A stretch of 61,466 nucleotides of DNA, the filler included, from Basidiobolus ranarum (Eukaryota), in assembly GCA_040143965.1 (NCBI GenBank). It is 22 parts of 22 records of this genome, joined end to end, with 100 filler letters (N's around TTAATTAATTAA, not from the genome) between each part and the next. Parts side by side here need not be neighbours in the genome. Positions count along the whole stretch, not along the records: positions 36,455 to 39,146 come from JASJQH010009937.1; 21 more parts are not named here. The stretch is one strand, 5' to 3'. The notes beneath the pieces are model-generated. The model was not told where the DNA came from and did no database searches. It was given only the letters and a program-made list of their open reading frames with translations. Numbering within the stretch: the stretch's first letter is position 1; the number at the start of each line of letters is the position of its first letter. The position numbers were made by a program, and so were the translations under genes. Positions 12,332-55,892 of this stretch are shown here, piece after piece.

Positions 12332-13647
12332 TGATAAAAGTATTGAGGGGATTTGCAAGTATTTTACAGAAGAATTGACAATATAGTGAAAATTGGTAAA
12401 AGTGATCAAATTGATAGAAATATCAATTAGAATAATAAACACACATTTTTGAATGACAGAATTGAGTACTAAATAAACCGTATATAAATAAACCAACTAC
12501 CAAAGTATGAGTTGCTGTTTACCTAATTTCAACATTCTAACTCAACTAATTCATTTGTATTTCTCTTAAACCTAACTTACATCATAATAATTCAAATTGT
12601 GCCTTAGCTAAAGGTTTAGTTAAGATGTCAGCAATCATTTCTTCAGTAGGGCAATAGACCAGTTCAATTATATCATTGTCAATTGTTTCTCCAACTAAAT
12701 GATGCCTAATATCTATATGTTTTGTTCTAGCATGAAATATTGGGTTTTTAGCCTATGTATTACAACTTTGATTATCTTCATATCCAGTATTAGCACATTT
12801 TTGAAAGTATCCCAAGTGTGTAAATAACTTCAATCACCACAAAGTTTCTAGTCAAGTAGCAGAGGCAGTCATGCACTCTGCTTCAGTAGTGGAAAGTGCT
12901 CCGGTAGGTTGCTTCTTACAATTCCAAGTTATGACTCCATTACCATGGAATAAAGTGTGCCCAGTTGTTGATCTTCTATCATCTAGGTTTCTTTCCCAGT
13001 CTGCATCATTGTAGCCTTCAATTTTTGTGCATCAGGACTAGCAGAGTATTCCAGAACTAGATCTACAGTTCATCTCAAGTACCTGAATTTTTATTTTACT
13101 GCAGTTTTGTGCTCAGATCCAGTATTTTTGAGATATCATCTGACTGTCCCACTGTCACAGCAATGTCTAGATATGTTCCAACCAATGTATACATTAAACT
13201 ACCCACCATAGATTGATAAGGGAACTCCTGGCTTTGATTTGAATCATTTTGGGCCAAATTGGATGAAATTTGTTTAATTTCACATTGAGATCCATTGGTA
13301 TTGATACAGGCTTGTTATTCTCCATGTTAAAGTGATTTAAGATTTCCAGGATATTTCTAGACTAATTCAGCATGATTTTATGATTAGGTTTATCTCTCTT
13401 GATTTGGATTCCAAGAATATAACTTAATTCACCTATAGCAGTCATCTGAAATTGGGTTGCTAAGCTGCTTTTGTCTCATAAAGTGCCTCAAGATCACTTT
13501 TGGCTATGATTAAGTCTTCCACAAATAGTGCCAACTTAAGGATCCTATTTCTGGTTGTTTAGATGTAAATACTGTGATCTGCTTTGCATTTTTGGAATTA
13601 GAGTAGTTCAAAATCAGTATCTATCTTGTTGCACCATGCCAGTGTGC
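12332..13647 (-). mobile_element. Copia family B RT/RNaseH relic, PPT and shortened 3' LTR (12332..12534)
   Basis: Minus-strand motifs GYNDADW..DDRRSTTG, KKQPT.ALSTTEAE, KHIDIRHH, MIADILTKPL. Purine tract abuts TGTTGAAATT. Confidence 0.85.
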
Positions 13648-13943
13648 TGTCACAATAAGGAACTGGACAAGGACTGGGAACAACAATAAGAGGCTAGAAG
13701 GCAGGAGAGTACTTGGGTGTAGACCACAAGACAAGACAAGACTGGACAAGGAGGATACTTTGGCAAGAATCTTTATTGATAACTGGCATTGATCAGACTG
13801 AAGTCTGATCAAGGAATACATGGTGCTTATAGAGATATTGCAAGGTGAAACATAATATACTGAATAGGGAATATACTGTGGCAAGTTTGAGAGTTGGGGT
13901 GTTAAGGACTACAAGGACCAATACAAAGAGGGATGATGCAAGA
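13648..13943 (-). repeat. Chromovirus family A LTR (partial) inserted in Copia RT
   Basis: TGTCAC terminus; matches 43204.. and 39722.. Confidence 0.85.
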
Positions 13944-19654: not shown

Positions 19655-22267
19655 ACTTAATACAGAGTGGCACAATATCGCAGGGTATCCACCAGATAGC
19701 TGGAAGAATGTTGATTCAGCAACGTTAATACAATGGTGGGCTTTGATGGAGATATTGATACAAACTTGTGTTGAGTATGAGCTAACCCTTGGGTATGAAG
19801 AACTCTATAAAAATATTCAGGAGAATATATCAAAGAGACCAAGGATTTTGAAGGTGACAAAGTAGCAATCAAGTGTTAATTGCATAAAATTTGAGTCATG
19901 TTTTTTGCACATGTGTTGATCCCTTGTTCTTGGAGATTGTAGCCAATCATGCACAACTATTTTGTGAGATCTTGAAATTTCACTCCTGAAACTGAAAAAA
20001 TTGGTTAAAAACAAATCTAACTTGACAATTTTATGATGGTGAGCAAGCAGTCAATCCCAAATAGATTAAAATTGTGATGGTTTTCCTACAATAACAATCC
20101 TCAAATTTCTGTTAGGGTTTCTGAATGGTATTGAAGCTTTGAGATGGCAAACTGGTTACAATGAAGTTGCTGAGAAACAGCTTATGCTGAACCAAAATTG
20201 CCATCCATGGCTGGGAATATACTTTAGATCCCCTGATGACTCATCATAATCAGCTGATGATAATGATGTGATATATCAAAAATACCACCGTTTGATATGA
20301 GGTATTCTTTTCTCCACAATACTCTTCTCCTACTGCAACATAAATGTATAAAGAAATTTTGCTCTTATTGTCACAATTTCTTGTGCTATGAAAGCTCAAG
20401 GCTTCATAGAGAAAATAATCATAAGCATGGTCACTGTATAAGGCCACTAGCTGCACCAAGCCCAGCAAATATCAATGGAAATATGTTCATAAAATCATCT
20501 TTGGTTTTGCCCACTCTGTTGACTGGCAGTGCTTTAACTCAAAGTTTTGGTAGCACTGCTCAAAGTCAAGATACTGTGGAGGTACCACAGTTATATGACC
20601 AGAATGATATAGGCAGAAATGCAACTTTGGTCAAACCAGTATGTCCAGACAACTTTGAGGACAAGATGCTAGATGCCAATCTTGATTATTCCAGTATTGA
20701 TGGTAGTATATCTCAAGATAAAGAAGACTATGGTTTTGTTATGGACACTTTGTTATTAGCAAGCATTTGTCTACTAATAGCACCTACACTAAGGGAAGCA
20801 GCTTTGATTATTGAGGAGTGTTGACTTCAAACTAATCTTAGCAACCAGGTGTTTGTTGCTTTTCTTACTATTTTATCACAGTTGATAGGAAACTGATGCT
20901 AGCCACAAACCTGGTGCAAGTGGAAAACACTTGTCAATTTTATGATTTCTAATTCTTCAGTAATCATTCTACCTTGATGCCAAAAAAGTTGTTTGGCTTT
21001 CAATGGTGATATGAAAAACCTGATGTCATGTTTTGCTTGCACACATTGGCAATCATAGAATCAGGTAAATACTGTTCATCTTTGGCTTACATACTGTTGA
21101 TTCCCCTTCTTAAAGTTTTGATAAAGTCCCCAAATATGGATGATTGATCCAATAACTGCTTTCTCCAGTGATCTGAAAACTGTCAGTATTGCCATTTGGT
21201 AATCTGAGTAATAATGTATGGGCAAAATTAGTGATGGAAATAGTGCAATGGGTTGAAGAGACTCCAGAATATAGCAGCCTTCCAACAAAGGGTTCTTTTC
21301 AATGTACTCATGGGTTTTTGCATTGTTTGAGCACAATAACAACAACAAAACCCAATCCATGGCCCCAGAGTTAATATCTCTATGATTTGAACTATTTTGT
21401 TTGTGTGGTAATCTGATAGTATTTCTAGGAAAGTTGCAAGGTAGACTTGTTCATGAGAATGATTGAAATACAAAGTATTATTGTTTTAGTAATGGGGTAT
21501 TCCAGTCAAGCAACAACATATCTACTTGAGGCAGGACATATGTTGATTGCTAGTCTGAGATAATTTAGCTGCATTTATACAGAAATTTGCAAAATCCAAG
21601 AACTTATTCTCATTGTCAATGGTAACCAGAGTCAGCTATTTGTTGGGTGGCAGTGCTACTCTAAACTTCTGATATTTAGCAGCTTTCCACAATTAGTTAG
21701 CTGGTAAAGTATATCAATGTTGTTGAGTTTGGTCTAAGGAGTCAAGATATGCATATATAGAGACTAAATACAACAAGATTCTTGTATTTTTTAATCCTCA
21801 TTATGTCTGGAACACAAAACCTAGAATCTTTAAATAAAAACATGCATATTGATTCAAATTCCTATACCAGTAAGCCCAATAATTGCAATATCAGAAAACT
21901 ATGGAGCAACACAAGTGCAAAATTATAAACCAAATTTTGCACATTTACTACTTGTATGCTAATTTATCACCTTAAAAATCCCAAGTTTAGTTGATATGTT
22001 CTTCTGGATATTGTTCTAAAGTACTTCTTACCAAAGGTTCAGCTCATATCCAACACATGTTTGTGGCAGGATCTCCTTCAAAGCCCACCGTTGTATTAAC
22101 AATGCTGAATCAACATTCTTCCAGCTATCTGGCAGATATCCTGCAATATTGCATCACTCCTTATTGAGTCCTTCCCATATATCTGCAGGGCCAAGACCAG
22201 CCTGAATTTCAAATTAAATATACTTCTTCCGAAGCCACTAACTTCAAACTGGTACTGTGTTATTCCC
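19655..22267. mobile_element. Mosaic of CACTA/EnSpm fragments: terminus at 20117, transposase N-terminus on + (20250-21060), 3' region
   Basis: ..TTCTGTTAGGG end, CQKSCLAFNGDMKNLMSCFAC (EnSpm Cys motif), and matches to 59850-60600 (inverted), 58920-59600 and 6500-7001. Confidence 0.75.
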
Positions 22268-22358
22268 TGATAAAAGTGTTTAGGGGATTTGGAAGTGTTT
22301 TGGACAAGATTTGGATTTGTGAATTAGACACTTAAGTTTTATTGAATTGAATATGTCC
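22268..22358 (-). repeat. Copia family B LTR end
   Basis: TGATAAAAGTG..GAATTAGACACTTAAG is the reverse complement of 39620-39713. Confidence 0.75.
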
Positions 22359-22458: not shown

Positions 22459-25152
22459 TACCAAATTGGTAAAACAAAAGTGTTTTTCCGTGCTGGTCAG
22501 GTAACTATGAGTATACAGGATATTCTGTCCTCCTATGTCCCATACTGATTCCAAGAGAATCTCTCTTGCATCCATTGGTTTTATTTCTAGCTCGCTTACT
22601 TGGAGAAACTGCGCTCAGATAAGCTGTACTATTACACTGTCATGATACAGAAGAACGTCCGTCGATTCTTAGCTCGCAAAAATTACCTTCGACTCCGATT
22701 CCGTACTGTCGTGGTTCAGTCAATCATTCGAAAGAAATTCGCCTTTCGTTTATTGGAAAATATGCGCCGTAAGAAGGCGGCCATCTGTATCCAGAAAAAT
22801 TGGAGAGCCTATCGGGAACGAAAGAGATACCAAGCTATGCGTACTTTGATAATCAAAGCGCAATCCTGTGAGTCAACAATTCCAATCACGTGATACATCA
22901 GGTTACTGATCATCATTCACATGTAGATGTAAGAAGGCATCTTGCCAAGAAGTTGGCCCTCAAATTGCGACAGGTTAAGGCTACCATCAACATACAAAGG
23001 GTTTACAGAGGGTGGTTCGTAGCATTTAGCAACCTTTTCATTTTCGCTTCATTCATGAGTAATGCGAGTTTAATGACATGATTTTTTTCTATTTAGGCTT
23101 GTTCGTAGAGAATATCGTAAAACGATCAAATCTATCATTCTTATTCAAGCCTGTCTGCGCCGTTCTTTGGCCAAGAAAGAACTTCGCCAATTAAAGATAG
23201 AAGCCAGGTCAGCGAACCACTTCAAGGAGCAGTCGTATCAGTTAGAGAATAAGCTTGTGACGCTCACCCAGCAGCTCGCTTTTCAAAAAGACGAGAATAA
23301 GACTCTTATCGAAAAGATTAACTCGGCTGAGAATCAAGTAAACATCTGGAAAGACAAGTACGAAAAAGCTGAACAGAAAAATACTGAGCTGGCGGAGAAA
23401 TTTGCTGGTTCTTCTGAAGAATCTAAAGAATATGAGGCTTTATTAAAGGAGAAAGATCAGTTATTAGCACGGTTGAAGAGTTTGGGCGACTCTTTCAAAG
23501 CTAAGGAGTCTGAGTTCGATGGAGTTAAAGAAGAGCTTTCAACGACCAAAAAGGAGCTGTTGAAACTCAAGACAATCTCCAAAATGATTAAGACTAAGAA
23601 AGAAGCTGATGATAAAATGACTCTTAAACTTCAAGAAGAAGTTAGCTCGCTTAAGGCCCAGTTGGCCGTTCTCTCCAGAGGCCAGAAAGTGGATACTGTC
23701 ACACTACAGGCCCACTACAACCTTGTCTCAGCTAATTCTACTCCTGTTACTTCATCGCCGGTGCTTACTCCCAGTATTAGTAACCCAATGGTGATCAATA
23801 CGCCAATAGTACCACCTCGTCCAGATCTTGCTTCAATGGAGAATCCACAGAAAGGAGGAGAATTCCAGCCACCGCTGCCTATTCAAAACTTCAACCAAAA
23901 TATCATGAGACAGAGTGTCCCTCCACACGCTTTTGCCAACCACATGCGCAGCAACTCTGTGGAGGCTGGAGGAAACAATTTCGCTTCAGAAAAGGATTAC
24001 AAGCGTATGACTTTGGCGGGACTCCCAATGGGCAGATCACGACAATCAGTTCTTGGACACATATCACTTCCGGATATACAGGTACATGAGTTTTCAAATC
24101 TGGGCTCTTTTGACCCTTTGTACTTACGCTCCCTTTAGAATATTTTAATTAGCGAAGGTTTAGTCAGCGAAATAGAAACGTTCCTGCGATCAGTAGCCAT
24201 CCCAGTACAAAATCAGTCACGTCCTATTATGGGAGCTCATGAGATTTTGTTTCCCGCCAACATAATTAACATGTGCGTTACTCAGCTTTGGGCTAACGAC
24301 TTGGGTTTAGAATTGAAGAGATTCTTAAACAAAGCGACGTTTACAATTGAAAAACTTGTTTCGGTAAGAATAATGCTTTATATCACTATATCCATATATC
24401 TCCATATATCTCCAAATGATCGTGTTGTAACATATCTTTCTTGATTACAGAGACCCGAGCGAGACTTTATCTTACCCTTCTGGTTATCTAATGCTTGTTA
24501 TCTACTTCTCGGAGTTACAGAAACCGAGAATCGTTATAAACAAGAAACTGTGCCAGGTCTAACGCGCCGCAACACTGATTATGTAGACCCACTGCGTGTG
24601 ATTGAGAAGTGTAAACAAGACCTGGAGATGTTGATTACCAACATATATAATATTTATCTGCAAGAATTGAATAAGCAGGTTGGTAAGCTGGTTATCCCAG
24701 CAGTGGTTGAGAGCCAGCCACTGAATGAGTATTTCGTCAAAGAGTCTGGATTCTTCAGTAAGCTTATGGGCAACAGTAATCCACCACCTTCCAACAAGAT
24801 TCTGACCGAATGGTTGAACGAGTTGATTAATACCATGAACTATTACTATGTCAGCGAGCTGCTTGCTTCAAGGTTGGTGGCTGAATTGGTGAATTTCATA
24901 GGAGCCAGTGCCTTCAACCATATTATCATGAGGAAGAACTTCTGCAATTGGAAGCGTGGTACACAAATCCAAGCAAATGTGACTGCTATTGAGGAATGGT
25001 TCAAGGCACACATTTCACCCAAGTTGCCAACCATGATACACTTGGAAAGACTTAAGCAATCGGTGAAACTACTAACGTTACTACACCAAGTCCGAGCTGT
25101 GTCAATTCTATTCCAAGGCTGTTATCTCTTAAATCCAGCTCAGATATCCTAG
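22459..25152 (+). CDS. MYO2: Class V myosin, C-terminal part (motor end, IQ repeats, coiled coil, DIL domain); five introns
   Basis: YQIGKTKVFFRAGQ|LAYLEKLR, IQ motifs (IQKNVRRFLARK, IQKNWRAY), EARSANHFKE.SY.LENK, DIL motif FNHIIMRKNFCNWKRG. Introns at 22501-22590, 22868-22926, 23015-23096, 24082-24138, 24364-24450. Confidence 0.9.
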
Positions 25153-25810: not shown

Positions 25811-27511
25811 TCAATCAGATAAATCCGATTCTGAATCTGACCCTTCTTCAGAGTCATCATTAGATGATATGGGCGAGTAGCCTCCACCTCGACCTAACAT
25901 TGAAGAAAGTGGCTTTTTGCCGCCATGAGTAGGGCGAATACGTGGTTGATCAACGTTACTTTCAAACACTGCAAGTTCTCCAGGTTCTGACTCCTCAAAA
26001 TTAATAACATCTTGCTGAACTTCCTGTTCAGCTTCCTGATCTTGGGCATCGCTCTCGACCTCTCCATCTTCAACTGGTGGAGAAGGTGAGGTCTCTGATT
26101 TGATTTTCCCGTTAGTCTTTCCATTCGCTTTACCGTTGGCTTTGCCATCTGGTGAACTCTTTTGTGCTTTCTTACTACCTGGCCCACGTCCAGCCATTAT
26201 GATGAATTCTTGCCAAATATACTGTTTACATTGGTCAGCATCTGGCAAGTCCTGTATCATTTTGGCGATGGTCGGATGAGAAAACCCGAAATAATCGGGG
26301 CCGGATGCAGAATTACTATGCTCTCTCTTACGAATTGTGTTCACTGCTTTGACAACTGTCGTCCAAGCACCTGTGGCGGTGTTCGCAATGATAGGGTTAT
26401 CGGGTTGATCTTCAGGTTCAATGTGAAACTATAGACAATGTTACTATCACAAATAGGCATTAGGAAATGTACAAAAGTGTTTACCTTGGGCCCTTCACCA
26501 CCATCAGATATTCTGCATACATATATAGTTTGGTTTTCAGGATCTACCATACTGGCGTATGACCTATACATTGAAGATTCATGGTTACAATGAGACATTT
26601 GAGGAGAGTTCATCTGATTACTAATGTTTACCTTTGGACAGTATATCCCACCGGCCAAATATAGCGTTCGTTATGAAAAGTGCTACGGTCATGAACAATA
26701 GTTCCCAAGTTGCTCACAGTTAACACTCCAACCTGAACTGGAAGAATATAATCGCCCTCATCGTTTTTGGGTAAATCTTGAACTCGACGTGCTTTTACCT
26801 CAACTCGTTTTTGTCTCCTCTTTTTCGGTGCAGTTTCCGCCAACGCTGTAGCGGTGGATGATTTTCGTTTCGCATTCACAGTTGGAGAAGCCTTTGCTGG
26901 ACTTTCTTTTGGTATCTTCTCATTCGGTACTTTCTCGTTTTTGCGCTTAGGTGGACTTCTTCTAGCCAAGGGTACGTCTAAACGAAATAAGTACAAGTCA
27001 GTAACCTTTGGTAACTAGTAATCTACGGTCAAGAGGAAACATACCTGACAAATCTGATTCAGGCTCTGAAGCACTCGAAGCATCGGAAATTGGGTCTGAG
27101 TCCTCTAGTTTAGCTAGTCGCTCGATTAAAATACTAGACATCGGGTTAGTTTGTTGAAATTTATATATAAAATGACTTTAGTCATCAAATAGTAAATAAA
27201 CTTACTTGTTTTCTCTCTTCAAGCGGTAAACCTTTCTTTCTTGCTTTTCGACGATTTCTGTTAATCTGTCTACTTCCTGTATAGTGAACTTTTTAGTCAC
27301 TTTCATATTTACAGAAATTACCCAATCAGGTTGTAGATGATTTCAAACGAAGCTGGTATTTGCGAAACAAGGGAAAATGGATCACTACCTCTAAAACTTC
27401 CTTGAGCTTTTGTTTAAGCTTCTTGTATTTCTCTGGAGAGGGCGAAGGCTCTACATCTTTATGTTTTGACGAACGCTCCCGTTTAATTGAAGGGTAGGTT
27501 GCTAAAGGCAT
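25811..27511 (-). CDS. FYRN/FYRC-domain protein, TBRG1-like, multi-exon
   Basis: N-terminal coiled coil EKYKKLKQKLKEVLE; LTVSNLGTIVHDRSTFHNERYIWPVGY (FYRN); SGPDYFGFSHPTIAKMIQDLPDADQC (FYRC). Confidence 0.85.
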
Positions 27512-36087: not shown

Positions 36088-36354
36088 TTACAAGGCAGGG
36101 CAGTTGGAACACTTGCAGTCATCACCACAACAGCACTTGCCCTTCTTAGCATCGCATGATTCACACTTGCAATCTTTGCCACAGCAACATTTGCTTTCTT
36201 TGGCTTGTTCGCATTTGCAGCCAGCTCCACAGTCACACTTGTCCTTCTTCACCTGCTCACATTCGCAGTCAGTTCCACATTCACACTTGTCACCACAAGT
36301 ACACTTGTTCTTCTTCACTTGCTCACATTTGCATTCAGCTCCACATTTACACTT
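36088..36354 (-). CDS. Long repeat-type metallothionein (5'-partial)
   Basis: 88 visible aa with 26 Cys in CxC/CCC motifs, no aromatic residues, repeated KCxCGxxCxCEQxKxx units. Confidence 0.85.
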   Translation of the reverse strand, partial: KCKCGAECKCEQVKKNKCTCGDKCECGTDCECEQVKKDKCDCGAGCKCEQAKESKCCCGKDCKCESCDAKKGKCCCGDDCKCSNCPAL

Positions 36355-36454
36355 NNNNNNNNNNNNNNNNNNNNNNNNNNNNNNNNNNNNNNNNNNNNTT
36401 AATTAATTAANNNNNNNNNNNNNNNNNNNNNNNNNNNNNNNNNNNNNNNNNNNN

Positions 36455-36765
36455 AAGTTCTCTAGCAAAATTAATAGACTACAATCTGACCAAGAATTAG
36501 CAAACAGTTTGAAGAGGAAATTCGGAGATGCTGTTTTAGTATTAGGTGACTGGTCATCTGCGAATGTGAAATTTCATGAGCCAATTAGAGGGAAAGGAAT
36601 GTGACGTATGCTGCGAAAAGCAGGGTTCGAAGTTCTGTTGTTGAACGAGTTCAGCACCAAGTTTTTTCCCCAAATGTGAGCTCTCAATTGGAAACATTCA
36701 AAACTATTCCAAACCCGAGAGTTTTTAGAAGAAACAGGATGTAAAATGGTCTTTTAAGGTACTGT
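36455..36765 (+). pseudogene. Fanzor (eukaryotic TnpB-like RuvC nuclease) C-terminal relic
   Basis: LKRKFGDAVLVLGDWS..NVKFHEPIRGKGM*RMLRKAGFEVLLLNEFST / PKCE / LETFKTIPNPR..NGLLR; stops and frameshifts present. Confidence 0.75.
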
Positions 36766-38061
36766 CCGAGATACAAAAAGAGAGAAAAGGAAATGAAAGC
36801 TAAGCCAGTAGTACAGGTAAGATTTTAAACAACATGTTGATCGTTTAGAAATCACCCCGGTCATGCCAACAAAAAAACTATAACGTCTAGTTTTCTGTTG
36901 ACATTCGTCTGAATGGTTTTCTATGATTGTCTAATTTTAATTTCAGCTTGTCTGATTATTTTTTGCAATCGTCTAATTTTAGGTTAAAACCCTGTAGATC
37001 ACCAACTATCAGTGTTGGAGCATTGTCAACACCACGAGGAGCAAAATCACGCATGAGCAGCGGTAGTTTGCTAGGACGAAGTAAGTGCAACTGCAAGTGG
37101 TCATTTGGTACAAAACAGGCGCCATCAGCTTTCTCGGATATGGCCAATCGAAATGTCAGAGGCACAAATTCAGGAATGTCGTAGCTGATTTCCCACGGAA
37201 AAACCCTGGAAGATATGGCTAATAATACAGCTATCCATGATTGGACAAACGACAATAGCAACTGTGATCAAAAGCCATTCTGACCAAAGTTCGCGATTCT
37301 TGAAGACGTAAGCATACTTGGTCGGCAACAAAGCAGCCACCATTACCATATTCCGTAGCTCCCTGCTCCCACTGGTTAGATATGCTCCATTGCGACTGTT
37401 GTATCTTCCAGGGGCGTGATGGATCAAATAATGGTGCAAAATTCTGTTGAGCAGCGAGATCCATTGTTCACACAGAATCTACGGAGTGGTTGGCTACTTC
37501 AGCTCTTGAGTCGCTAACTCCATTTCATGTATTCAACGGGTTTCTCCGCGTCTGCACTATGAGTATTTGGTTGGTTTTTCCATGTAAAGGGTAACAGATC
37601 AATTCAGGGTCTTGTATGTGTTCCACGTGTTTTTCACAAATTTAAATAAATCAACGGTTCCTACTTTATATTATTCAATTAATTGATCATCAATATAAAA
37701 ATTTATCGATAATCACAGAACCAGCCATTGTGTGGCCTTTAATTATCTGAGTCTTTCTTCCACTGAACTCTGTTTCCCTTGTTCCTACCCCTTTGCCTTT
37801 CGCTTCTTTCTCTCTATTTCAATACTTCTTCCTCTCCGAGCTCTTGGTATTGGCTCACTTATTATTCCTGTTCTACTAGAGTTTTATTGGTATGTTAACA
37901 AATCTCTCAAATTTATAACTCTTATAGTTTTACTCATTCGTGTCGAGATCATTTATTGATTTCTCACTTTATTCCTCGCACATAATCTTAACTTTGATTA
38001 CAGTTCTTGATACTGACTGAGATTTTATTATTAAGGGTTCTTGGTTTTAACCACACAAGTT

Positions 38062-39146
38062 ATGTCTAATTCACCGACTCCCGATCCCCTTCGGGGGTTA
38101 TCAACTTCACCATCTTTATCTTCTCCAACAGGAATACCTGAAAGACTTCTTTCGAAAAGGTACCTTTAGAGTGATTCCTTATGTGTTTGAGCTGTTTTGA
38201 GTTTACATAATAGAGAGTCTTTTACTATCCTAAAAAACTCCGCTTTAATTTATCTTTTGCTGATTGGTTTATATTCTACTTTGTAGAACCATGGAGATCC
38301 AAGCTGAAGAAGGTATATTACCTTATCGCTCCCCGTCTCATGCTTCCTCGACCAATTCTATGCTTGGGTCCTATAACAGTTCCCTTCTTGATGAAGGATC
38401 TCGTTCCAAAACCCCGGAATCTAAACTCGGCCTTTCCTTATTAGATTCATTTTCAGATCCCTCGCAACTTGGTTCTAGCACTTTTCCAACCGGAAGAAGA
38501 GCGCGTGCAGACACTATGCCTTCGTCCCTATCGGCATATCCTTTTCGCAGTAAATCCCCCGGGACTTCTTCCGAAGTTTCCACTCCAATTGGCAGCAATT
38601 ATTCTGCTTCTCCCGGATCTATTACTCCAACCAGGATTGGAAGCGGAAATACTACTCGTTCTCGCGGCAATTCATTGAGCATTCCATCAAGTGTATTTTC
38701 TAACGCTTTTGGATCGAGTGTTTTTTCTCCCTGGCAGGATTCTGTTAGTAACGAAGGCAACAATAATGATTTCAACGAGGGAGATCCTAATGAAGATCCA
38801 GTTAATCCTCTTGTTAAGACATTGGATTACCTAGGTCTTGATGACTCTTCTCAGCACTCTGTTCACCAATTAAGCAATAATCTTGGTGGTACTCGATACG
38901 ACTCGCCACCAGAGGCTAAATGTACATGTCCTTTAATATACATTAATATTAAGTGTTGTATATTAATCAGTTTTCTATTTTACATTAGCGGTTGCCAATT
39001 TAAGAGCTTCTCTTGGACGACTCCGGTCTCATTCAATGTCTTCCACTGCCAATTATGGAGATGACATGATACCTCCTCTTCCATCTTCCCTTCAACATCT
39101 TAGGAGGACACCTTCTCGCACGCGTGCAATTTCGGTCGGGTTTTTG
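38062..39146 (+). CDS. PUF2/JSN1-like Pumilio RNA-binding protein, N-terminal part (exons 38062..38159, 38287..38921, 38989..)
   Basis: Ser-rich region with motifs EIQAEEG, RARADTMPS, TLDYLGLDD, RTRAISVG recalled from fungal Puf2/Jsn1 N-termini. The PUF domain itself is not in the contig. Confidence 0.5.
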
Positions 39147-39246: not shown

Positions 39247-39330
39247 CAATATTGTGACGGTTCTCTGACGGTTTTGCTATTTCGGAGGGTGGATCCGATC
39301 CGGATCAAATCGATTTTATTTTTGTTAGGG
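39247..39330 (+). mobile_element. CACTA/EnSpm 3' terminus, CpG-intact copy
   Basis: Ends TGTTAGGG; aligns to the reverse complement of 53683..53765 and to 59764..59847. Confidence 0.8.
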
Positions 39331-39713
39331 GAGAAATACAAAATTATTAGTTGAGTGAGAATGTTGAAATTAGGTAAATAGCAACTGGTCATTTAGTAGT
39401 AAGTTTGTTCATATTCTGATTATTTAGCACTCAATTCTGTCATTCAAAAACATGTTTTTATTGCGCTAATTAATAGAAATATCAATTAGATCACTTTTAC
39501 CAATTTTCACAATTTTCTCAAAACTTCTTCAAATCATCTCAAATTTTCACCAATGCTTAATAGGCATGTTTGTTATGATCCAAGCATGTCCAATAGTCCT
39601 ATTTCATAGTAAACTATAAATAGGACATATCCAATTCAATTAAACCTAAGTGTCTAATTCTCAAATCCAAATCTTGTCCAAAACACTTCCAAATCCCCTT
39701 AACACTTTTATCA
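39331..39713 (+). repeat. Copia family B PPT plus complete LTR (39362..39713)
   Basis: TGTTG...TATCA termini, 352 bp; matches ~2980..3351 and 12332..12534 inverted. Confidence 0.8.
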
Positions 39714-40255
39714 GATCAAACTGTCACAGTAAGGAACTGGACAAGAACTGGAAACAATAACAAGAGGTCACAAGGCAGGAGAGTACTTGGGTGTAGACCA
39801 CGTGACAAGACTGGACAAGGAAGATACTTTGGCAAGAATCTTTATTGATAACTGGTGTTGATCAGACCGAGGTCTGATCAAGGAATACATGGGGCTTATA
39901 TACATATTGCAGGGTTTAATAGAATATACTGAATAGGAAATATAGGAAATATGCTGTGGCAAGTCCAAGTGTTGGGGTGTTGGGAACTACAAGGACCAAT
40001 ACAACAAGGGATGGTGTAAGGATGATCTGGTGACATTCCATGGAAGGTCATGGCAGAAATATACTGTGTGTGGGATGACATGATTGGTTAGGTTTCATGG
40101 AATGTTCCAAACAACATGACTTCCACATAAGGTAACCTCAATGAACTAACACAAGATTGCCAAGAAGGGATGGCACAGCAGAAATGATGTCATAAACTCA
40201 AAATAGAAGAGTTCTATTTGCAGTGGATCAGTATGCCAAGATTAGAGTCATGACA
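39714..40255 (-). repeat. Chromovirus family A LTR (39722..40255) plus 8 nt of its PBS, located at the Copia PBS
   Basis: TGTCA..TGACA termini; followed on the minus strand by GTTTGATC, as at 8189. Confidence 0.8.
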
Positions 40256-41505
40256 ATGAGCCCCAAACTAGCTGTTGAAAGAATATCTACCAGTACTATT
40301 ACCAACATTTTTGTATTCATGTAGAAGTTTGATGGTGAAGACTTTCACCTTTGGAAGTTTAAGATTAAATGGTGCTGGATGACAAGAACCTTTGGGGATT
40401 AGTTACAGGAGAAGAAATAGGGCCAAAGGGACCACCAGAAGCTATCCTTGCCTTTCACAAGAAGCAGAGGAAAGCACTCTCACACTTTGTCTACATATCA
40501 GAGATTCTCACTCAAGGCACATACAATCAACTAAAAATGTTCAAAATGCTTGGGAAGCACTTGAGGGACTATATGCGACTTAAAGTCTGGCTAATAGGCT
40601 ATATCTTTGGTGATTATAACTCTCAATTCAGAGGAATCCTGATGATTCTATGCTTAATCATATAAATTGATAAAAACTATGGCAGATGAGCTCTCATCAA
40701 TTGAAACACCTCTAAATGAAGATGACCTAGCCATGACACTACTTGGGAGCCTGGCAGATGAGTTTGGAAACCTCTCAATTGCCCTAAAATCAAGATCAAA
40801 GCCATTAATAATGGAATATGTTGGTGCTAGGCTTTTGAACAAAGAATTATGGAGATCTAATTCTCAGCAAAATAATGCAGAACAGGCATTTTTTGGAGCT
40901 GTAAAATGTCCAATAGGCTTCAATAATGGTGCCCTTAATAGGAAATTAATCATATGTAAGTATGGCAAGAAGCCAGGACATTTAATCAAAGATTGCAGAA
41001 AAGGATTTTAGCCAAAAAGCTAAAATTGGAACCAGCAAATCAAGTAGGCACTGATAGAGATCATCCGTTTGTGTTTGCCCTATCAGTAACCACCTAAGAA
41101 GACTCAGAATCATGGCACATTGATTCAGGAGCTTCCCAGCATATGTCAAACAGGAAAGATTGGTTTTCCAGCTTTAAACCAATCCAAACAAGGGAAGTCT
41201 ACTTAGGTGAATACTATGCACTAGATGCAGTGCATAAGGACACAGTTGTGCTCAATTTAGATCAAAATTCAGTTACACCATCTGCAAAATTAGATGATGT
41301 ATTCTATATGCCAAATATAGCCAAGAATCTACTCTCAGTAAGCCAAGCAACAACTCAAGGACTAAATTCCATGTTCAGTAAGGCTGGATGCACTATCACC
41401 GATTGGAATAATACCAAATTAGCTACTGTGGTCAAAACTCAAGATTTATACAAGCTAGATATCAACCAATTGCATTCTGAGCATGCAAGCTTGCACAGCA
41501 TTCCA
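40256..41505 (+). mobile_element. Copia family B gag-protease relic
   Basis: KFDGEDFHLWKFK, Zn-knuckle remnant CKYGKKPGHLIKDC, WHIDSGASQHM, KNLLSVSQ. Confidence 0.88.
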
Positions 41506-41860
41506 AAGGTCTTGTGTCATTGTTGAGTGACTGTCTCACTGTTGACTAGTTGCTTCCAAATGCTGCATTAATTGCAATATTATGGTATTATAACTTGTCA
41601 TGCCCTGTATAGCAGCTTTGTAGTTTTTACTAATGATTGCATGCAAATCATTATGGTGTTCTGCCTGTGATTCCCTTGTTGTAATAATAATGCCAAATAT
41701 TTTGGCAGGTGGTTGTTCAATAGCAGGCAAAATACCCATTTTGGAAGTTGATGGTCTTGAAGGTGTTTTGTTAAACTTTGCTCAACTATTGACTTACTAC
41801 ATATTTGGGAGATTACAATCTCTTTTCCTGCACTATTGGTGGAAAGGAACACATCTGGTA
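41506..41860 (+). mobile_element. CACTA/EnSpm 5' arm fragment
   Basis: Reverse-complement match to 60860-61230. Confidence 0.6.
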
Positions 41861-42038
41861 AATTGATTACTAGCCTATTACGAAAAGAAAAGAGGGAACT
41901 TCAAGGAAGCTGAAGAATATGTCACGGAAGTACTTCAGNNNNNNNNNNNNNNNNNNNNNNNNNNNNNNNNNNNNNNNNNNNNTTAATTAATTAANNNNNN
42001 NNNNNNNNNNNNNNNNNNNNNNNNNNNNNNNNNNNNNN

Positions 42039-43203
42039 GGAGAATATGGCACTGTAGTCTGTTGTTTTATCCCATGTGTTGAGCAGAAGTTAGAGAAGAG
42101 TTTTGAGGTATGTTCCCCTCCATTTTCAATATGGATATTTGTAATCTTTAGACCTGTTGCAGTCTCCACAATTGCTTTAAATTTCTTGAAGGTATCAAAG
42201 GCATCATCCATACTGGCCAAAAAGTACTGCTAAGTATACTTTGTCTTATCATCAATACAGGTCATAAAATACTTTTTTTCACCTAAGGATTTTGGCTGCA
42301 TTGAGCCACACCAATCTGAGTGTATTAGGCACAAGGTTTGATCAATTTTGCTCATTCCAGAGTCCACAAGCAGCTGTCTGTGGTACCTACCATGTAGAAG
42401 ACCTTCACATAGCTCCAGATCTGGTGGAATTACAACATTTAGTTGTAAAACCATCATGTTTTTGATTAAATTTCTCATTTTTTGGCCCCTAGATGACCCC
42501 ATTTCTTATGCCAGATTTTCCAGTCTATTTCTTCAGCTGAGGTAGTATTAACTTGGTCATATATTGGCCTAATATAATAAAGCTTATACAGGTTATTTTG
42601 TTTACCTCCAGAAGCTACATGAGTCCCTTTTTGATCCCTGATTGTACACCAATTCTGATTTAAATTAAAGCTCTATCCCACAGATGTAGCTATGCTCACT
42701 GATAACAAGTTTTTTGCTATCCCAGGAACATATAGCACATTTTTCAGTGTCAAATACATGTCCCCAGAGATGCCCCCAAGATCTTCTTTAATTTCTCCCA
42801 TTCCTGAAGTTTCTAGTCACCAGTCACCTCCCATAAAAACCTTCTTGCTTGTGTCAGTTTTGAGTGTCTTCTACCAATTTTTTTGACTAGAGAAATGTTG
42901 AGAAGCACCAGAATCAGTATACCAGAACCTAAAGTCTTGTTCATATGTCACTGATAGGGCAGAAAGAAATAAAACCTTCTCTCTAGTTGAAACCTGAAAG
43001 TCATGTTATGACTTCTCATTTTTGTTGTAGGTTCTTGATTTGCATTCTTTTAACTGGGTCATGATTTGTTAAAACATAGCATAAACCTGGTTTCCTACTT
43101 CCGTAATATTTGTACTTGCCAAAGCTACATTTTCCTGCTCCAACAAAGACCCTTCCTCAGATTCTTATTTCAAATTCATACTTCTGAGGTTTGTTCCATT
43201 AGG
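42039..43203 (-). mobile_element. Copia gag-protease-integrase relic
   Basis: WYTDSGASQH, KNLLSVS, LIHSDWCG..KYFMTCIDD, ENGGEHTS..F.NFCSTHGIKQQTTVPYS. Confidence 0.88.
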
Positions 43204-44520
43204 TGTCACAACAAGCAACTAGACAAGGACTGGAAACAACAACAAGAGGTTGGAAGGCACAAGAGTACTTGAGTGTAGAACATTACACCAGACAAGAAAA
43301 GACTGGATGGGGAAGATACTTTGGCAAGAATCTTTATTGATAACTGGCATTGAACAGACTGACGTCTGATCAAGGAATACAAGGAGCTCATATAGATATG
43401 GCAGAGTGCAACATAGTATACTGAATAGGGAATGTAATGTGGCAAGTTCATGTATTGGGGTATTGGGGACTACAAGCACCAATTCAAACAGGGATGATGT
43501 AAGGATGATGTTGGGATGATCTGGTGACCTTCCATGAAAGATCTGGGCTGAAATATACTATGTGTGGAATGACACAATTGGATACGTATTGTGGAGTGTT
43601 CCACAGAACATGACTACCATAAAAGGTGACCTGGATAAACTAACACAATATTGCCAAGAATGGATGGCATTGCAGTTATCAGGTCATAATCTAATAATAA
43701 AAGAGTACTATCAGTTGTGAATTAGTATGCCAAGATCAGAATCATGACAGTATCACCTTCTTAAGTGATGGCTTCTAGACATCATAGGGCCAGATTTTTC
43801 TGGGTAGGCTTTGTGAAGCTGCTGGCAAAATTGCTAGGAAGTGGAAAGATTTGTTGCTGGCTCTCATGACTGATCATTTGTTGAGTATCCCCTCTAGTCC
43901 ACTAAATAATGCAATTTCATCAATAAATTCTGGAATCTAGAATTTTGCTAACTTAATATTAAGGGTGTTCTTCAACTTGGATTTCTAGGGGTAGGTCAAT
44001 GGATTGGCCCTGGAAGGTGTTTCTGGCATGCAGCTCTAGCAGAGACGCATGGAATACATTGTAGACTTTGAAATTGGCAGCAAGTTCAAGGCAAAAGGCT
44101 ACTGAATTGATTTGCTAAACAATTTTAAAAGGCCCCAGTCTCTTATGATGTAGTTTACCACAAGATCTGCTGGTTTTGATACTTTATTGGAGTAGCCATA
44201 TGTAATATCCTGGCTTGACATCTGGGCTTGGCTTTATTTTCTTATCCACAAAGTTCTTGTTATGGGATTGAGCATGCTCAAGCTTGGATATTAATTGTTT
44301 ATGGATGTTCTTACAAAGAGTGGCATGATCTGAGGCAGCAGGCCAACATAAATTGGATCAATCTCTGCCCTATCAGTGGAACTACTCAACAAGGAAAGTG
44401 TCATTACTTGAAATTGTCAGTGTGAAGTAGCTTTCCAATAGGTGAAAGGTAACCTAACAATGTACCTGCCTTGAGGATTCCAGACTTCAACTGGCCACTT
44501 ATTCTCACCACAAATGCATC
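43204..44520 (-). mobile_element. Chromovirus (Ty3/Gypsy) family A 3' end: integrase GPF/chromodomain, PPT, 3' LTR (43204..43749)
   Basis: KLHHKRLGPFKI, NVFHASLL, VSKILDSR..YLVD.RGY..EP..NL chromodomain. AAGAAGGTGATAC abuts TGTCATG. Confidence 0.88.
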
Positions 44521-44530
44521 AGATCATACC

Positions 44531-44730
44531 AGTCATGATTCTGATTTCAGCATATGATCCACTGCAAATAGAACTCTTCTATTATTAGATTATGACATCA
44601 TATCTGCTGTGCCATCCCTTCTGGCAATCTGGTGTTAGTTCATCCAGATTACCTTATATGGAAGTCATGTTCTTTGGAACATTCCATGAAACCTAACCAA
44701 TCATGTCATCCCACATATAGTGTATTTCTG
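44531..44730 (+). repeat. Chromovirus family A LTR, 5' part
   Basis: Reverse-complement match to 40055-40255. Confidence 0.8.
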
Positions 44731-50412: not shown

Positions 50413-51860
50413 TTGATCAGTAGTAGGTACTCCAATGCATTCCATTTCATCCACTAAAAGAGTGACTCTATTAATAAGTGATTTAATGTCTTTTCCTGGC
50501 TTCCCCTTTATGTTAAAAAATTGTCTTCTTAGAAGCATCTTGGTGGCAGCAGAACTTGTTTAGTAGGTGTCTTCTAAGGCTTTCCATATATTCTTGGTAG
50601 TCTGAGCTCTTGAACATTGAATCCACAATTTGTGTTTAACATTAAGACAAATTGTGTTAAAGGTACTTTGTTCTTTTTTAACCTGGAGTAAAGCTTTGGT
50701 TTCAGAGAGTTTTGCATCATTTTCTTCTCCTACAACTGTGTCCCAAAGTCCTTTTTCTTGCAGCAGCATTTTCATTTTCAGTTTCCAAACTTGATGTTTG
50801 GTTCCATCCAATTTTTCAGAAGAGGCAAAAGTTCCACAAGTTTGAGAAGTAGATATCAAGAGAGTTCAATCTTGGGGCTCATAGCATGTTAAAGTATTTT
50901 GGAGCCTGTGAGAAGAGGTTTGGGGAATTAGAGGAATTGGTGGTTTCTTACTTATTGACTTATTGAGTAGAATGTTGACATTTATAGTTTTGTCCAGATG
51001 TAGACAAACTAACATATAAAATGCTGTAAGGAAGGTCCCAGGAACATGTGTGCAAAGTTTGGGTCTTCTAGCACAAGTTTGAAAAAACCTATATATCTGG
51101 GAACTTGTAAGTTGATAAAAACATTCCAAGTAAATTCAAATTGAGAATAATGAATAATAGCTTAATGATTTATGAGACAACTAAGTACTATGCTATATAT
51201 GACTATACAGGTGCTTAGGCAATGAAAATCTTAACAATCACAACTAAAGTTGACTGAGATGTTGAACAATGATGAATTATTCAGCCAAATTGTCTTCATA
51301 TAAACATCTTGTCAGCTGTAGAATATAATTGGTAGGTGTTTTCTAAGGCTTACCATACCATCTTGGCAGTTTTTGCACTCAAACATTGAGTTAGCTACTA
51401 GTCTTTGACATTAAGACGTATTTTATTAAAGGCACTTTGTTCTTACTCAAACTAGAGTTAAACTTTGGTTTCAGCTAGCTTTGCATTGTTTTCTTCTCCT
51501 AAAACAGTGTCCCAAAGTCCTTGTTCTTGCAACAGTATTTTCATTTGATAATTAGTTCCAACCAATGTGTTAGAAGAAGGAAAGTTCCTGATATTTAAGA
51601 AGTACACCTTATGGAGAGTACAAACCTGGGGTCAGTATCCATCTAAACAATTATTGAAGGCTATTGGCAGTGTCTTTAGAATTAAAGAATTTGGTGGTTG
51701 CCACTTTTGATTGATTGAGTCAAAAGTTGATATTTTTAATTTTGTCATATTGTAAGCAAACCAATATGTAGGATCTGTTAAAGAAGATGCCAGGAAAATG
51801 TGTGCCAAGTTTGGGGCTTCTAGCACAAGTTTGAAAAATCCGTATATCTGAGAACCTTTG
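50413..51860 (-). mobile_element. Two Copia family C 5' ends: LTR 50886..51236 with PBS and gag; second gag with partial LTR ~51240..51860
   Basis: EKLDGTKHQVWKLKMKMLLQEKGLWDTVVGEE, with its second half duplicated at 51490-51550; LTR shared with 45496..45843. Confidence 0.82.
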
Positions 51861-52884
51861 AAGCACAGCACATAAATCAACATGTTGAACATCTCAGTGA
51901 GTGGCTTTAACCTCAATCAAAGCCTTGATACTGCTTGTGTTTTTCCTTGCATATTGCTTATTTTCTCTGTAAAATACTCATGGTGATGTAGTTACCATTA
52001 ACACTATGAAAGCAAGAATAAGCAAAGTGAACATGGTTTTTGGTGACTTCGTGATTACTGGCCTTTGCTTCTTTGGCCATTGCTTGTGAGTAATGCTTTC
52101 TCTGGCAAAAGTTATATTAGGCTTCATGACATCTATTCACTTTGCATAAAGCTTTCACCCTCTCTCTCATTTCCAGTGGTAAAGATTTAATGGTTTTTGA
52201 ATTCAAGATTGTCTTTTTTCATATCATGGATATTGCTGGCTATAGCTCAGAGCTGAGTTAATAGATGCACTTCTATGTTGCTTTCTCAGAGCCTTCTGCT
52301 TAATCTGAACAGGTAGTTATGTTCAAGGCCAAAAGCCAGTTAGGATCAAGCCTACAGTGTCATGTGACCTTGGAGAACTGCCAATCTGATACATATATTT
52401 GTGACTCTGGTGTAAATATTTTCTGGTTTGTTATTATGTTTTTCTTGTTTGCTTATATTATTGCTTGCACTAATTATAATCCTAGCATTCTTTTACATAA
52501 GTTTAGTTGTAACATGTTAAACTGAGGTGGCAATAGCAGTGCAGGCATAATTACCTGTTCCATAGTGGCACTGTGTACATGATTTATTTCCATTTATATA
52601 CCCAACCATGTTGTATTAAGAATAATAAAAGATATTCAAGCCTTTTCCTGGGACAGATATGCAATAATTATGTTTGTCAGTATATCATGTATTTTGACAA
52701 GTATGCTTCCATATTGCAAATATATATACAGTTTATAACTTTGCTGGGATGAAACTTATTTTTTTCTTATTGCTTGCTAGGCTGGTATAGAGCTAACACA
52801 CTGGTGAAGACATTAGCCTGGATAGCTGTTCCTTGTGCAGTCTCTAAGTAGGCTATCATGAATTTGTGATGTGCTAGCGGATTT

Positions 52885-53102
52885 TGATTCTTCACATTGT
52901 TGAAGTATTTTGCGAGTATGTAGAAGTGTTTTGGAGAACTAGAAGAATTGATGGTCTTAACTTACTGTTTGATCGAGTAGAAAGTTTACATTTTTTGTTT
53001 TGTCATACTGTAAACAAATAGACATGTATAATGTGTTAAGGAAGGTGCTAGGAACCTGTGTGCAAAGTTTAGGGCTTCTTGGAAAAGTCTAAATATGTGA
53101 GA
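52885..53102 (-). repeat. Partial Copia family C LTR
   Basis: Matches 50870-51090. Confidence 0.7.
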
Positions 53103-53202: not shown

Positions 53203-53682
53203 TGGTAAATTGATTCATGCTTCATCATTACTTGAGTTAGTTTCTGGCATGTTAATGCCTTCCAAAGTGGATAGTGGATTGCTAGACTGCTCATCAATTA
53301 AGTCCTCTGTTCTTGCTGGTTTTTTTCCTTTTGTACCAGCAGGCTTTGGCTTAGAAGCCAATTTCGGACTTAGATTTTGAACCCTTTTTGAATGGCATTG
53401 AAATTTTCAGATGATAAACTTGGTTTAATGAAATTTCTTAGAAATAGCTTATAATAAACCAAAATTGCCATCCATTAGGATGGCATAGCAGATATGATGT
53501 CCTAATATATCAATAAAAGAATTCCATTCACAGTGGATGAGTATGCCTAGTTCAGAATCATGACAGTATCCTCTCTTTTAGCGATGGCTTCCAGATACCA
53601 TAGGCCAGACTTTTGGGTGGGCTTCATGAAGCTCCTGGCATAGTTCTTCAGAGTTGGAAAGAATTTTTTACTGGTTCCCAAT
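53203..53682. mobile_element. CACTA fragment (53203..53475) followed by chromovirus A LTR piece, PPT and chromodomain end (53476..53682, minus strand)
   Basis: 53203-53475 is the reverse complement of 60605-60875. TGACA at 53561-53565, PPT AAAAGAGAGGATAC, WEPVKN chromodomain end as at 43750-43860. Confidence 0.75.
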
Positions 53683-55892
53683 TCCTAACAAAAAAAAATT
53701 GATTTGATCTGGTTTGGATCCACCCTCTGAAATAGCAAAACCAACAGAGAACCATCACAATATTGCTGGCTTGCAATCTGCCAGGGATTTTGATGGTGTT
53801 ACGGCAGTTTCTTGATGCTATCTTAATGGTATTCATACATGTTAAAATATTGATCCTCAAATTTGGTATGCATTATTCAATATCCAGCAATTTTTGCAAA
53901 AGTATAATTTTTGAATGGCAAATTACTAGGTTTACTGCTGTAGGAATTCTAATTAATATACAAGCCTTTATTTGGATATTTTAGGCTTTGTATTCCAGCC
54001 ATAATGAGAATCAAAAAATACAAGAATCTTGTTGTGTTTAGTCTCTACATATGCACATATTTGACTGATTAGACATAACTCAACAATATCAATATGCTTT
54101 ACCAGCAAATTAACGATGGCAAAATGGCTAAACATCTGAAATTTTGAATAGCACTGACACTTGGCAAATAGCTGACTGCTGTAACTGTTCACAATGAGAA
54201 TATGCTCTTAGATTTTGGCAAATTTCCATAATGAATTCAGCCAATGCATCCTCAAATTGCAGTCAACAAATGTCCTGCCACAAGTAGATATGTCATTGCT
54301 TGAATAGATTATCACATGGCTAAAATGATAATACTGCATATCTCCATCTATCTCACCAAGAAGTCTGTCTTGCAGCTTTCCTAAAAATAACATCAGATTA
54401 TCACACAAGCATATTAGTCCAAATATAAAGATACTTACTCTGTGTCCATGGCTTGGGCTTTGTTGTTTTAATTTTGCTCGAACAATGCAAAAACCTGTGA
54501 GCACATTGAAAAGAGCCGTTTGTTGGCAGGTTAATATACTCTGGAGTCTCCTTAACCCATCACATTACATCCATCACTGATTTTCCTGATACATTATTAA
54601 TCAGATTAGCATAGGGTATTACTGACAAATTCACATGGAACATCATTTCACCACAGGTGTGCTCCATTGGGAACTCCCAGAATGTATAGTAAGGGCGCAT
54701 AATCTCTAATCATTGCGGAAGATGCAGCAGGGAATGTATTGAAAAATGGCTAACATTCAGTCTATCTACTTTAAAACTGTAATAAAGTTTTTCATATCCA
54801 ATTACAAAATCTTTGCAAAAGTTGCTGTGTTTGCCTGAGATCTGCCAATGTGAGTTGATGCTATAGGAATATATTAAAAATGTTCACAAACAGCTCCCAA
54901 TGTAGCCATTACTTATCAGGCAGAAATCTTTTCAAAATTGCACTTAAATATATACAAATTCAATACTTCCAGTCTTTGCATTTGAATAAATGCCTAGATG
55001 AGTGGATATTGATGGGAGTCCTGTTAAAATACAATGACATCTTGATGTTTCAAGCATTTTTCCAATTGATTCAAACTTTGTTCCTATCTCAAATGGCTCA
55101 TTCATATTGAATTTTCCACTTTATAGCTGAGTAAGTAGTATCAGAATGTTGTTGAATAGTAAGTGCAGGGTGCCTAATGGGAAGCTCTGGCTCCAGCTGA
55201 TCCCCTTTAGCAATATAATCTTAAGCTTACAGCTAATACCAAGTTTGATGTTAGACTGACTTTTTGGTGAATGGATATCAGTGATCATGTTGAAATCTGA
55301 CCAGGCTCTTGATGGTAAAATCATGAAGTTTAGTGTTGTATTTGGATAGTAGTAATGCATATGCCTGTTTGAGTAAACTCCATTGATTTGACAAAATCAA
55401 CAGCAAGATAGTGCATTGTGCCTGCAAAAACCTCAAAGTTTACTGATGGCAGGAGTGTCACCAATATATACAACAATATTAGCTTTAACAAAATATTCAC
55501 CCATCTGAACCCCATTAGATAACCATTCAAATTCCACAATCAAAGGCTCCCAGAAGCTATCTATAAGCACTGGTGATTTAGGTCCAGATATAATGGATAG
55601 TATCAAAATATTATGAGTCTTATACCATTCAGAAGGAGGAAGATTTAAGTTGATCAAATGTATTGGCCAGCATGCCTTTCCAATGGTATATTTGTTTAGT
55701 GAGAAACCTTCCAGAGCCAATGCAAATGCATGATCATACATGTTCTCAAAGAAACCTTGACTTTTCAGATTCTGATAGTGATATCCATCAAGTATATTGG
55801 TAATACCATCAGCTTTATGATGAGTACTTTGGTATTGGATCAATGATCTATATTTGGGTGATTGCATCAAAACTTTAAGATGGGGAATTAAC
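53683..55892 (-). mobile_element. CACTA/EnSpm transposon 3' half: Tnp2 core, DUF4218-like region, terminus at 53683
   Basis: ILDG..CWPIHLINLNLPP..ILSIISGPKSP..DSF..PL..GDTPAISKL, then YTFWEFPMEHTCG..PYANL, running to ..TGTTAGGA. Confidence 0.85.

Follow-up and report, generated by a model that had tools for sequence, protein, structure and literature searches.

A probable Fanzor1 pseudogene fragment at a contig end in an assembly of Basidiobolus ranarum

A short stretch of DNA in the Basidiobolus ranarum assembly GCA_040143965.1 raises the question of whether this genome hosts, or once hosted, an RNA-guided nuclease gene of the Fanzor type, and of how much of such a gene is left. The window (the whole stretch of DNA that was analysed, 61,466 bases) consists of 22 contigs of 2,687–2,710 bases each, placed in descending size order. 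The spacers between them consist of 44 N, TTAATTAATTA and a further 44 N (for example, 36355–36454), and the adjacency of contigs has no biological meaning. The sequence of interest lies at 36455–36765 and very probably represents a decayed, truncated Fanzor1 pseudogene fragment of the Mucorales type, of which the Parasitella parasitica protein PpFz1 is the solved representative.

The relic starts at base 1 of contig 14 (36455–39146, 2.7 kb). The initial annotation described a plus-strand frame running from the contig start, and this is literally so, as the preceding spacer ends at 36454. Because the relic begins at the first base of its contig, the DNA upstream of 36455 is unassembled, not absent, and the 5' truncation is an apparent one produced by the end of the contig. 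Translation of the frame from 36455 gives KFSSKINRLQSDQELANSLKRKFGDAVLVLGDWSSANVKFHEPIRGKGM, a TGA at 36602–36604, RMLRKAGFEVLLLNEFSTKFFPQM and a second TGA at 36677–36679. The frame of 36456 gives PKCE (36669–36680). The frame of 36457 gives, across 36685–36765, QLETFKTIPNPRVFRRNRM, a TAA at 36742–36744 and NGLLRYC. All three frames therefore translate as originally reported, including the stop and the frameshifted PKCE and NGLLR peptides. The parts of the contig are as follows.

36455–36601, plus strand: relic piece 1, 49 codons (KFSS...GKGM), with GDWS and HEPIRG; 5' side cut by the contig end
36602–36604, plus strand: in-frame TGA, where most relatives have Arg
36605–36673, plus strand: relic piece 2, RMLRKAGFEVLLLNEFSTKFFPQ, with the relocated RuvC-II Glu codon (GAG, 36647–36649) and the conserved Thr68
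36662–36687, plus strand: frameshifted first half of the zinc ribbon, by comparison with relatives such as P0003 (...TSSFCPECEIGELETFK)
36685–36765, plus strand: relic piece 3, QLETFKTIPNPRVFRRNRM-TAA-NGLLRYC, from which four residues of the relatives are missing and in which homology ends at a candidate 5' splice site (GT, 36759–36760)
36766–39146, no strand assigned: remainder of the contig beyond the 3' limit of the relic, with no recognisable Fanzor sequence

The 73-residue read-through from 36455, with the TGA written as X, was used as the query for similarity searches. Among 177,635 PDB sequences, the best match is the MBP-tagged Parasitella parasitica Fanzor1 (PDB 9cf0; E = 1.1e-16), in which query residues 1–71 align with chain residues 1100–1171 and 36 of the 71 positions are identical, as counted from the match line. 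The Spizellomyces punctatus Fanzor1, SpuFz1 (PDB 8gkh), is matched over residues 1–69 with E = 2.3e-5. These two proteins are the sole PDB matches at E <= 10, and no TnpB or Cas12 chain is among them. A library of 1.84 billion protein representatives returned 503 matches at E <= 1e-3, 90 of them at E <= 1e-10, with a best E value of 2.7e-20 and a top identity to the relic of 68%. When the search was restricted to longer relatives, only two Rhizopus microsporus proteins were found, and none exceeded 68% identity.

A profile built from 22 long relatives (651 positions) places 36455–36658 at positions 498–566 (100 bits, E = 4e-32) and 36670–36759 at positions 571–605 (E = 4.4e-4). By this placement, the relic spans about one sixth of a Fanzor1 protein. 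The long relatives are genuine Fanzor1 homologues, as indicated by their full-length matches. For example, P0009 (732 aa) matches PpFz1 over 6–707 with E = 5.6e-197, and P0053 matches both PpFz1 (1.7e-114) and SpuFz1 (2.5e-35). No Pfam family was matched by five pieces of the relic at E <= 10; for ten full-length relatives, PF07282 appeared below its cut-off in four and reached the cut-off in none. Pfam is thus blind to the relic, and it is the matches in the PDB and in the library that support the family assignment. A fragment of 70 residues that Pfam misses is nevertheless securely assigned through solved structures and large-library searches. The comparison with Fanzor and TnpB proposed in the initial annotation was made here by PDB, library and profile searches; it gave significant matches to experimentally characterised Fanzor1 proteins and so bears out the reading as a Fanzor1 relic. 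The Fanzor1 motif string given in the initial annotation also agrees with the relatives retrieved. Judged from its alignments, the relic descends from Fanzor1 and is closer to the characterised Fanzor1 proteins than to any other family.

The closest named relatives share 61–64% identity with the relic, and the annotations of Rhizopus, Cokeromyces and Spinellus contain many short 'hypothetical protein' fragments. Many of the relatives are themselves fragments of 100–370 residues that cover the same region, which indicates that such debris is common in their genomes. Names were found for 12 of the 20 clusters looked up, and all 12 are from Mucorales (Cokeromyces, Spinellus, Rhizopus, Mucor, Helicostylum, Benjaminiella) or Kickxellomycotina (Coemansia, Dispira). 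Basidiobolus, in contrast to the Mucorales hosts, is not a member of that order. Fanzor1 families in Rhizopus, Phycomyces and Mucor were catalogued in 2013 in Table 1 of Bao and Jurka (PMC3627910). The searchable supplementary tables of PMC10432273 contain no Basidiobolus entry, and file 3 of these (cluster representatives) contains 30 Rhizopus, 22 Mucor and 5 Parasitella entries. Basidiobolus and Fanzor were not found together in the literature searched.

Several other contigs of the window carry recognisable genes. On contig 4, an intact, single-exon UDP-N-acetylglucosamine pyrophosphorylase gene of 488 codons (Pfam UDPGP) occupies 8807–10270 on the plus strand. Its product is 84% identical to the Basidiobolus ranarum UDP-GlcNAc pyrophosphorylase, and the next matches are at 58% or below. 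No other taxonomic clue was found in the window, and the gene points to a Basidiobolus-like host provided that all the contigs belong to one assembly. The C-terminal part of a cytochrome P450 (33661–34531, minus strand; Pfam p450, E = 2.5e-31) is cut by a contig end. A DIL domain ORF (24445–25152, plus strand) and an FYRC domain ORF (25811–26428, minus strand) lie on neighbouring contigs and are ordinary eukaryotic genes by Pfam; the DIL ORF is presumably a myosin-V-type cargo-binding tail. At the end of the contig that precedes the relic contig, a Cys-rich ORF with C-x-C repeats (KCKCGAECKCEQVKK...) occupies 36088–36354 on the minus strand and is truncated where that contig stops. No Pfam family matches it at E <= 0.001, and it looks metallothionein-like.

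The host distribution of the relatives bears on whether the relic belongs to Basidiobolus at all. The relic contig could be contamination contributed by a fungus of the Mucorales or Kickxellomycotina, and the relic would then be uninformative about the host genome. Such an origin would fit the named relatives, which include the two Rhizopus microsporus proteins and of which none of the 12 clusters is from Basidiobolus, and the Basidiobolus-like gene at 8807–10270 is on a different contig from the relic. It is nonetheless unlikely. With a best identity of 68%, the relic is no copy taken from a sequenced library relative, the G+C content (0.40) and CpG observed/expected ratio (0.78) of the relic contig are within the range of the other non-repeat contigs, and the contigs follow one another in size order, as in a single assembly. 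The apparent host lineage is the only mildly new element of the finding, and it rests on that different contig (8807–10270).

The preferred reading, a decayed Fanzor1 fragment, can be examined residue by residue. In SpuFz1, the metal-binding residues are given in PMC10432273 as E541, D383, N385 and D606. With a tag offset of 394 in 8gkh, counted along the aligned chain, IDPN contains D383 and N385, LLDEYKTS contains E541 and WNRD contains D606. Glu65 of the relic (GAG, 36647–36649, in LLNEFST) aligns with chain residue 935, which is E541 of SpuFz1. The RuvC-II Glu that had been reported as present is therefore the counterpart of a catalytic residue. Among the 150 relatives listed, this column is Glu in 129 of the 141 aligned. 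In the same set, Gly31 of GDWS (36545–36547) is Gly in 145 of 150, the Trp33 column is Trp in 134 of 150, and the Thr68 column is Thr in 119 of 126.

Fanzor proteins are described in PMC10530073 as having Pro or Gly in place of the canonical RuvC-II Glu, with a relocated Glu downstream, and G500 and E536 are named in PMC3627910 as two extremely conserved residues. The relic has this arrangement, with Gly31 at the canonical Glu site and Glu65 downstream of it. The retained part is the second section of the split RuvC domain, in which the family's Gly stands where the old Glu was and the relocated catalytic Glu is kept, and, of the zinc ribbon (TNB domain), the first half. The RuvC-I Asp (IDPG/IDPN) would fall upstream of 36455, beyond the contig start, and no RuvC-I was found in the other contigs of the window by tblastn with the relatives or by the 22-member profile.

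The lesions of the relic comprise two in-frame stops (TGA 36602 and TAA 36742), two changes of frame and a gap of four codons (12 bases). The TGA at 36602 aligns with an Arg of PpFz1, in a column where 98 of the 149 relatives have Arg, 28 have Ile and 6 have Leu. The initial annotation had read this stop as a CGA to TGA change. The position of the stop at an Arg column is in agreement with this. The change itself is a candidate only: AGA to TGA would likewise need one substitution, and CpGs are not depleted in this region. The first frameshift is in or near a T6C4 run (36662–36671), after NEFSTKFF, and the TGA at 36677 is met in the 36455 frame after it. The second frameshift is between PKCE and QLETFK. 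No reading frame runs uninterrupted through the relic.

The retained half of the zinc ribbon is damaged. The position of the first zinc Cys is occupied by Phe. The second Cys (TGT, 36675–36677) is retained but is out of frame, the TAA at 36742–36744 falls at the third zinc-ligand Cys of most relatives, and the fourth Cys was not found. Thr68 is kept and the next Ser is replaced by Lys, which leaves the [TS][TS]-x-x-C4 pattern of the zinc ribbon (TNB domain) incomplete. Piece 3 is 51.6% identical to residues 560–590 of P0003, and the 4-residue gap is present also relative to P0002, P0013, P0021 and P0039. Of the zinc finger originally reported, the first half is recognisable but damaged and the second half was not found.

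Sequencing errors are common in homopolymer runs near contig ends, and the frameshift in the T6C4 run, taken alone, might be a sequencing artefact. This raises the alternative that the gene is intact in the organism, with the stops and frameshifts due to sequencing or assembly errors and the missing parts unassembled. Both that frameshift and the position of the relic at base 1 of a 2.7-kb contig are compatible with such an explanation, which is very unlikely on the remaining lesions. Homopolymer errors do not account for TGA 36602, TAA 36742 or the 12-base gap, Phe stands in place of the first zinc Cys, and no RuvC-III is present in the 2.4 kb assembled downstream. In addition, other contigs contain long, clean ORFs (for example, the 488 codons of 8807–10270), which indicates that the assembly is not riddled with indels.

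On the 3' side, the homology to Fanzor1 stops at NGLLR(YC). A 60-member C-terminal profile and the 22-member full profile, run over all six frames of the window, detected no RuvC-III (WNRD). The C-terminal profile (60 segments, HGLL...WNRD...) matches 36688–36762 only, apart from a noise hit with E = 2.2 on another contig. Neither a RuvC-III nor a second exon was found by tblastn at E <= 10 on the plus strand downstream of the relic. A weak match at 37414–37545 (E 0.5–0.85) runs along the minus strand, opposite to the relic, and was put down to chance. Since neither the profiles nor tblastn recovered WNRD, RuvC-III and the second half of the zinc ribbon are missing.

Among the closest predicted relatives, P0002, P0003, P0021, P0033, P0066, P0139 and P0152 either end at HGLLR or run into unrelated residues after it, and other relatives continue as HGLLRC.N..C...WNRD. 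Captured introns have been reported in Fanzor genes in PMC10530073. Judging from where the predicted relatives stop, the family may have an intron at HGLLR that is left unmodelled, and homology ends at this point. The relic has a candidate 5' splice site where homology ends (GT, 36759–36760). No downstream exon is recognisable, so the intron is putative.

An omega-RNA was sought by several routes. Rfam gave no match on the relic contig at E <= 1, although Rfam may hold no Fanzor omega-RNA family. The 20-base motif common to two PpFz omega-RNAs (PMC10432273, supplement) has no match with three or fewer mismatches. For the 241 nt that follow the relic, folding is no more stable than for shuffled sequences (z = +0.90). 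The earlier observation that neither RuvC-III nor an omega-RNA end is visible thus stands after profile, tblastn, Rfam, motif and folding searches, all of which were negative.

No marks of a carrier element were recognised on the assembled contig either. No terminal inverted repeat was found on it; the upstream half of such an element would lie in unassembled DNA. The repeats of the contig amount to one direct repeat of 23 nt and one weak inverted pair of 21 nt. The direct repeat is imperfect, lies at 36917–36981 on the plus strand (TTTTCTATGATTGTCTAATTTTA / TTTTTTGCAATCGTCTAATTTTA, 42 nt apart), approximately 150 nt past the relic, and may be due to chance. No transposase domain was found: none of the 26 ORFs of at least 45 codons outside the relic reached the Pfam cut-off, and the two minus-strand ORFs at 36956–37478 have Atlas scores of 0.80 or less, which is chance level. 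None of the other 21 contigs has sequence in common with the relic contig, and tblastn with 150 relatives and the profile found no second Fanzor copy in those 21. The 179 tblastn matches of the 150 relatives at E <= 0.01 are every one inside the relic. From the known biology of the family, the parent gene would presumably have been carried inside a DNA transposon, and by analogy with the experimental findings on PpFz1 and SpuFz1 it would presumably have encoded an active, omega-RNA-guided double-strand DNA endonuclease. The relic itself is inert DNA and cannot make a nuclease, because two of the three catalytic motifs are missing in the assembled sequence, the zinc ribbon is ruined and no frame is open.

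The contigs of the window fall into two groups by CpG content. The CpG observed/expected ratio is 0.03–0.15 in 9 of the 22 contigs and 0.52–0.85 in the other 13. The contigs of the first group are at the following positions.

2811–5519, 5620–8328, 11237–13943, 19655–22358, 39247–41938, 42039–44730, 50413–53102, 53203–55892 and 58780–61466: CpG-depleted contigs, by observed/expected ratio

These nine contigs have a TpG/CpA excess of 1.24–1.59 and share mutual similarity of up to 1.6 kb. They are a repeat compartment that bears the signature of cytosine-methylation-driven or RIP-like decay. Four of the 24 ORFs tested in them have a Pfam match, to copia-type gag/pol or to a tnp2-type transposase.

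40658–41523 (plus strand), 50563–50865 (minus strand) and 55436–55891 (minus strand): pieces of copia-type LTR retrotransposons (Retrotran_gag_2, Pol_BBD, DUF4219) and a tnp2-type Transposase_21 fragment, by Pfam

Two further ORFs in CpG-depleted contigs, at 20267–20821 (plus strand) and 59861–60451 (minus strand), share the motif ...HKHGHC...PAA..., belong to one repeat family and have no Pfam match.

The relic contains 7 CpG in 311 bp, an observed/expected ratio of 0.64. As the initial annotation had noticed, the fragment is unlike the repeats in this respect, given the ratio of 0.03–0.15 in the nine related contigs. The relic escaped the CpG-stripping of the repeats of this genome, which fits a low-copy fragment. 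The retention of CpGs also slightly weakens a CpG-deamination origin of the TGA.

Kept CpGs, together with the 51–68% identity to relatives that the relic retains, would also be compatible with co-option, in which a host gene uses the fragment as an exon, as untranslated sequence or as a regulatory element. Co-option is very improbable, as no frame is open across the relic and the neighbouring ORFs match no known family. The identity of the relic to its relatives is at the level found between intact members and so does not point to selection on it.

The affinities of the decayed fragment are clearest in comparison with known systems. PpFz1 (PDB 9cf0–9cf3; Cell 2024, PMC11423790) is the best solved match, with about half of the residues identical over 71. 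The two sequences have the same order of motifs: GNWS or GDWS, (Q/H)(D/E)P.R.KG, the Glu in (D/N)EF.T, and CP.C...NPR...HGLL. With a tag offset of 410 residues, derived via P614/P616 of the published account, the relic corresponds approximately to residues 690–761 of the 849 of PpFz1. As described there, PpFz1 is intact and binds its omega-RNA, whereas the relic has stops, frameshifts and half a zinc ribbon and lacks RuvC-III and the omega-RNA motif. Cleavage of DNA in vitro with a 5'-ATN TAM is reported for PpFz1 in PMC11423790. The FRI insertion of the parent of the relic is not visible because the FRI region lies upstream of the contig start.

SpuFz1 (8gkh; Nature 2023, PMC10432273) is far more distant from the relic than the Mucorales-type proteins are, with its catalytic E541 matching the relic Glu. 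Its elements are described in PMC10432273 with an omega-RNA and with defined inverted repeats of 30 nt, neither of which was found at the relic. For the Mucorales Fanzor1 families catalogued by Bao and Jurka in 2013, G500 and E536 as numbered in PMC3627910 both have counterparts in the relic. No carrier transposon, whether Mariner, MuDR, Helitron or another, is assignable at the relic.

TnpB and Fanzor share the ancestral fold and, in the description of PMC3627910, the motif order D...[TS][TS]..C4 zinc finger...RD. Prokaryotic TnpB (IS200/IS605, IS607) has the canonical RuvC-II Glu, and the relic has the Fanzor-type Gly there. The relic does not group with TnpB: the window contains eukaryotic genes, and tblastn of 185,579 bacterial and archaeal genomes, a scan that reaches close relatives only, found no relative of the relic. 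That the similarity is to a prokaryotic TnpB or Cas12-like gene, or to an unrelated zinc-ribbon protein, is scarcely credible despite the RuvC and zinc-ribbon core common to Fanzor and TnpB (PMC3627910) and the weak PF07282 matches of the relatives, since the two PDB matches at E <= 10 are both Fanzor1 proteins, the prokaryotic scan was negative within its reach, and the Gly-for-Glu and relocated-Glu arrangement is present.

As a pseudogene fragment of the PpFz1 type, the relic has a modest bearing on the distribution of the family. Early-diverging fungi have been known since 2013 to carry Fanzor1 genes and Fanzor1 debris, and solved structures have given the mechanism of the family; on its own, the relic matters little. 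A break inside the ORF fits a multi-copy element. It is possible, though doubtful, that a Fanzor1 of this type reached the Basidiobolus lineage or persists in it, with intact members elsewhere that have their own omega-RNA and TAM. A Basidiobolus host, if true, would slightly widen the recorded host range of Fanzor. The relic serves as a flag that the genome was once invaded by an element carrying a Mucorales-type Fanzor1, and intact copies, if found in the full assembly, would be candidate compact genome editors.
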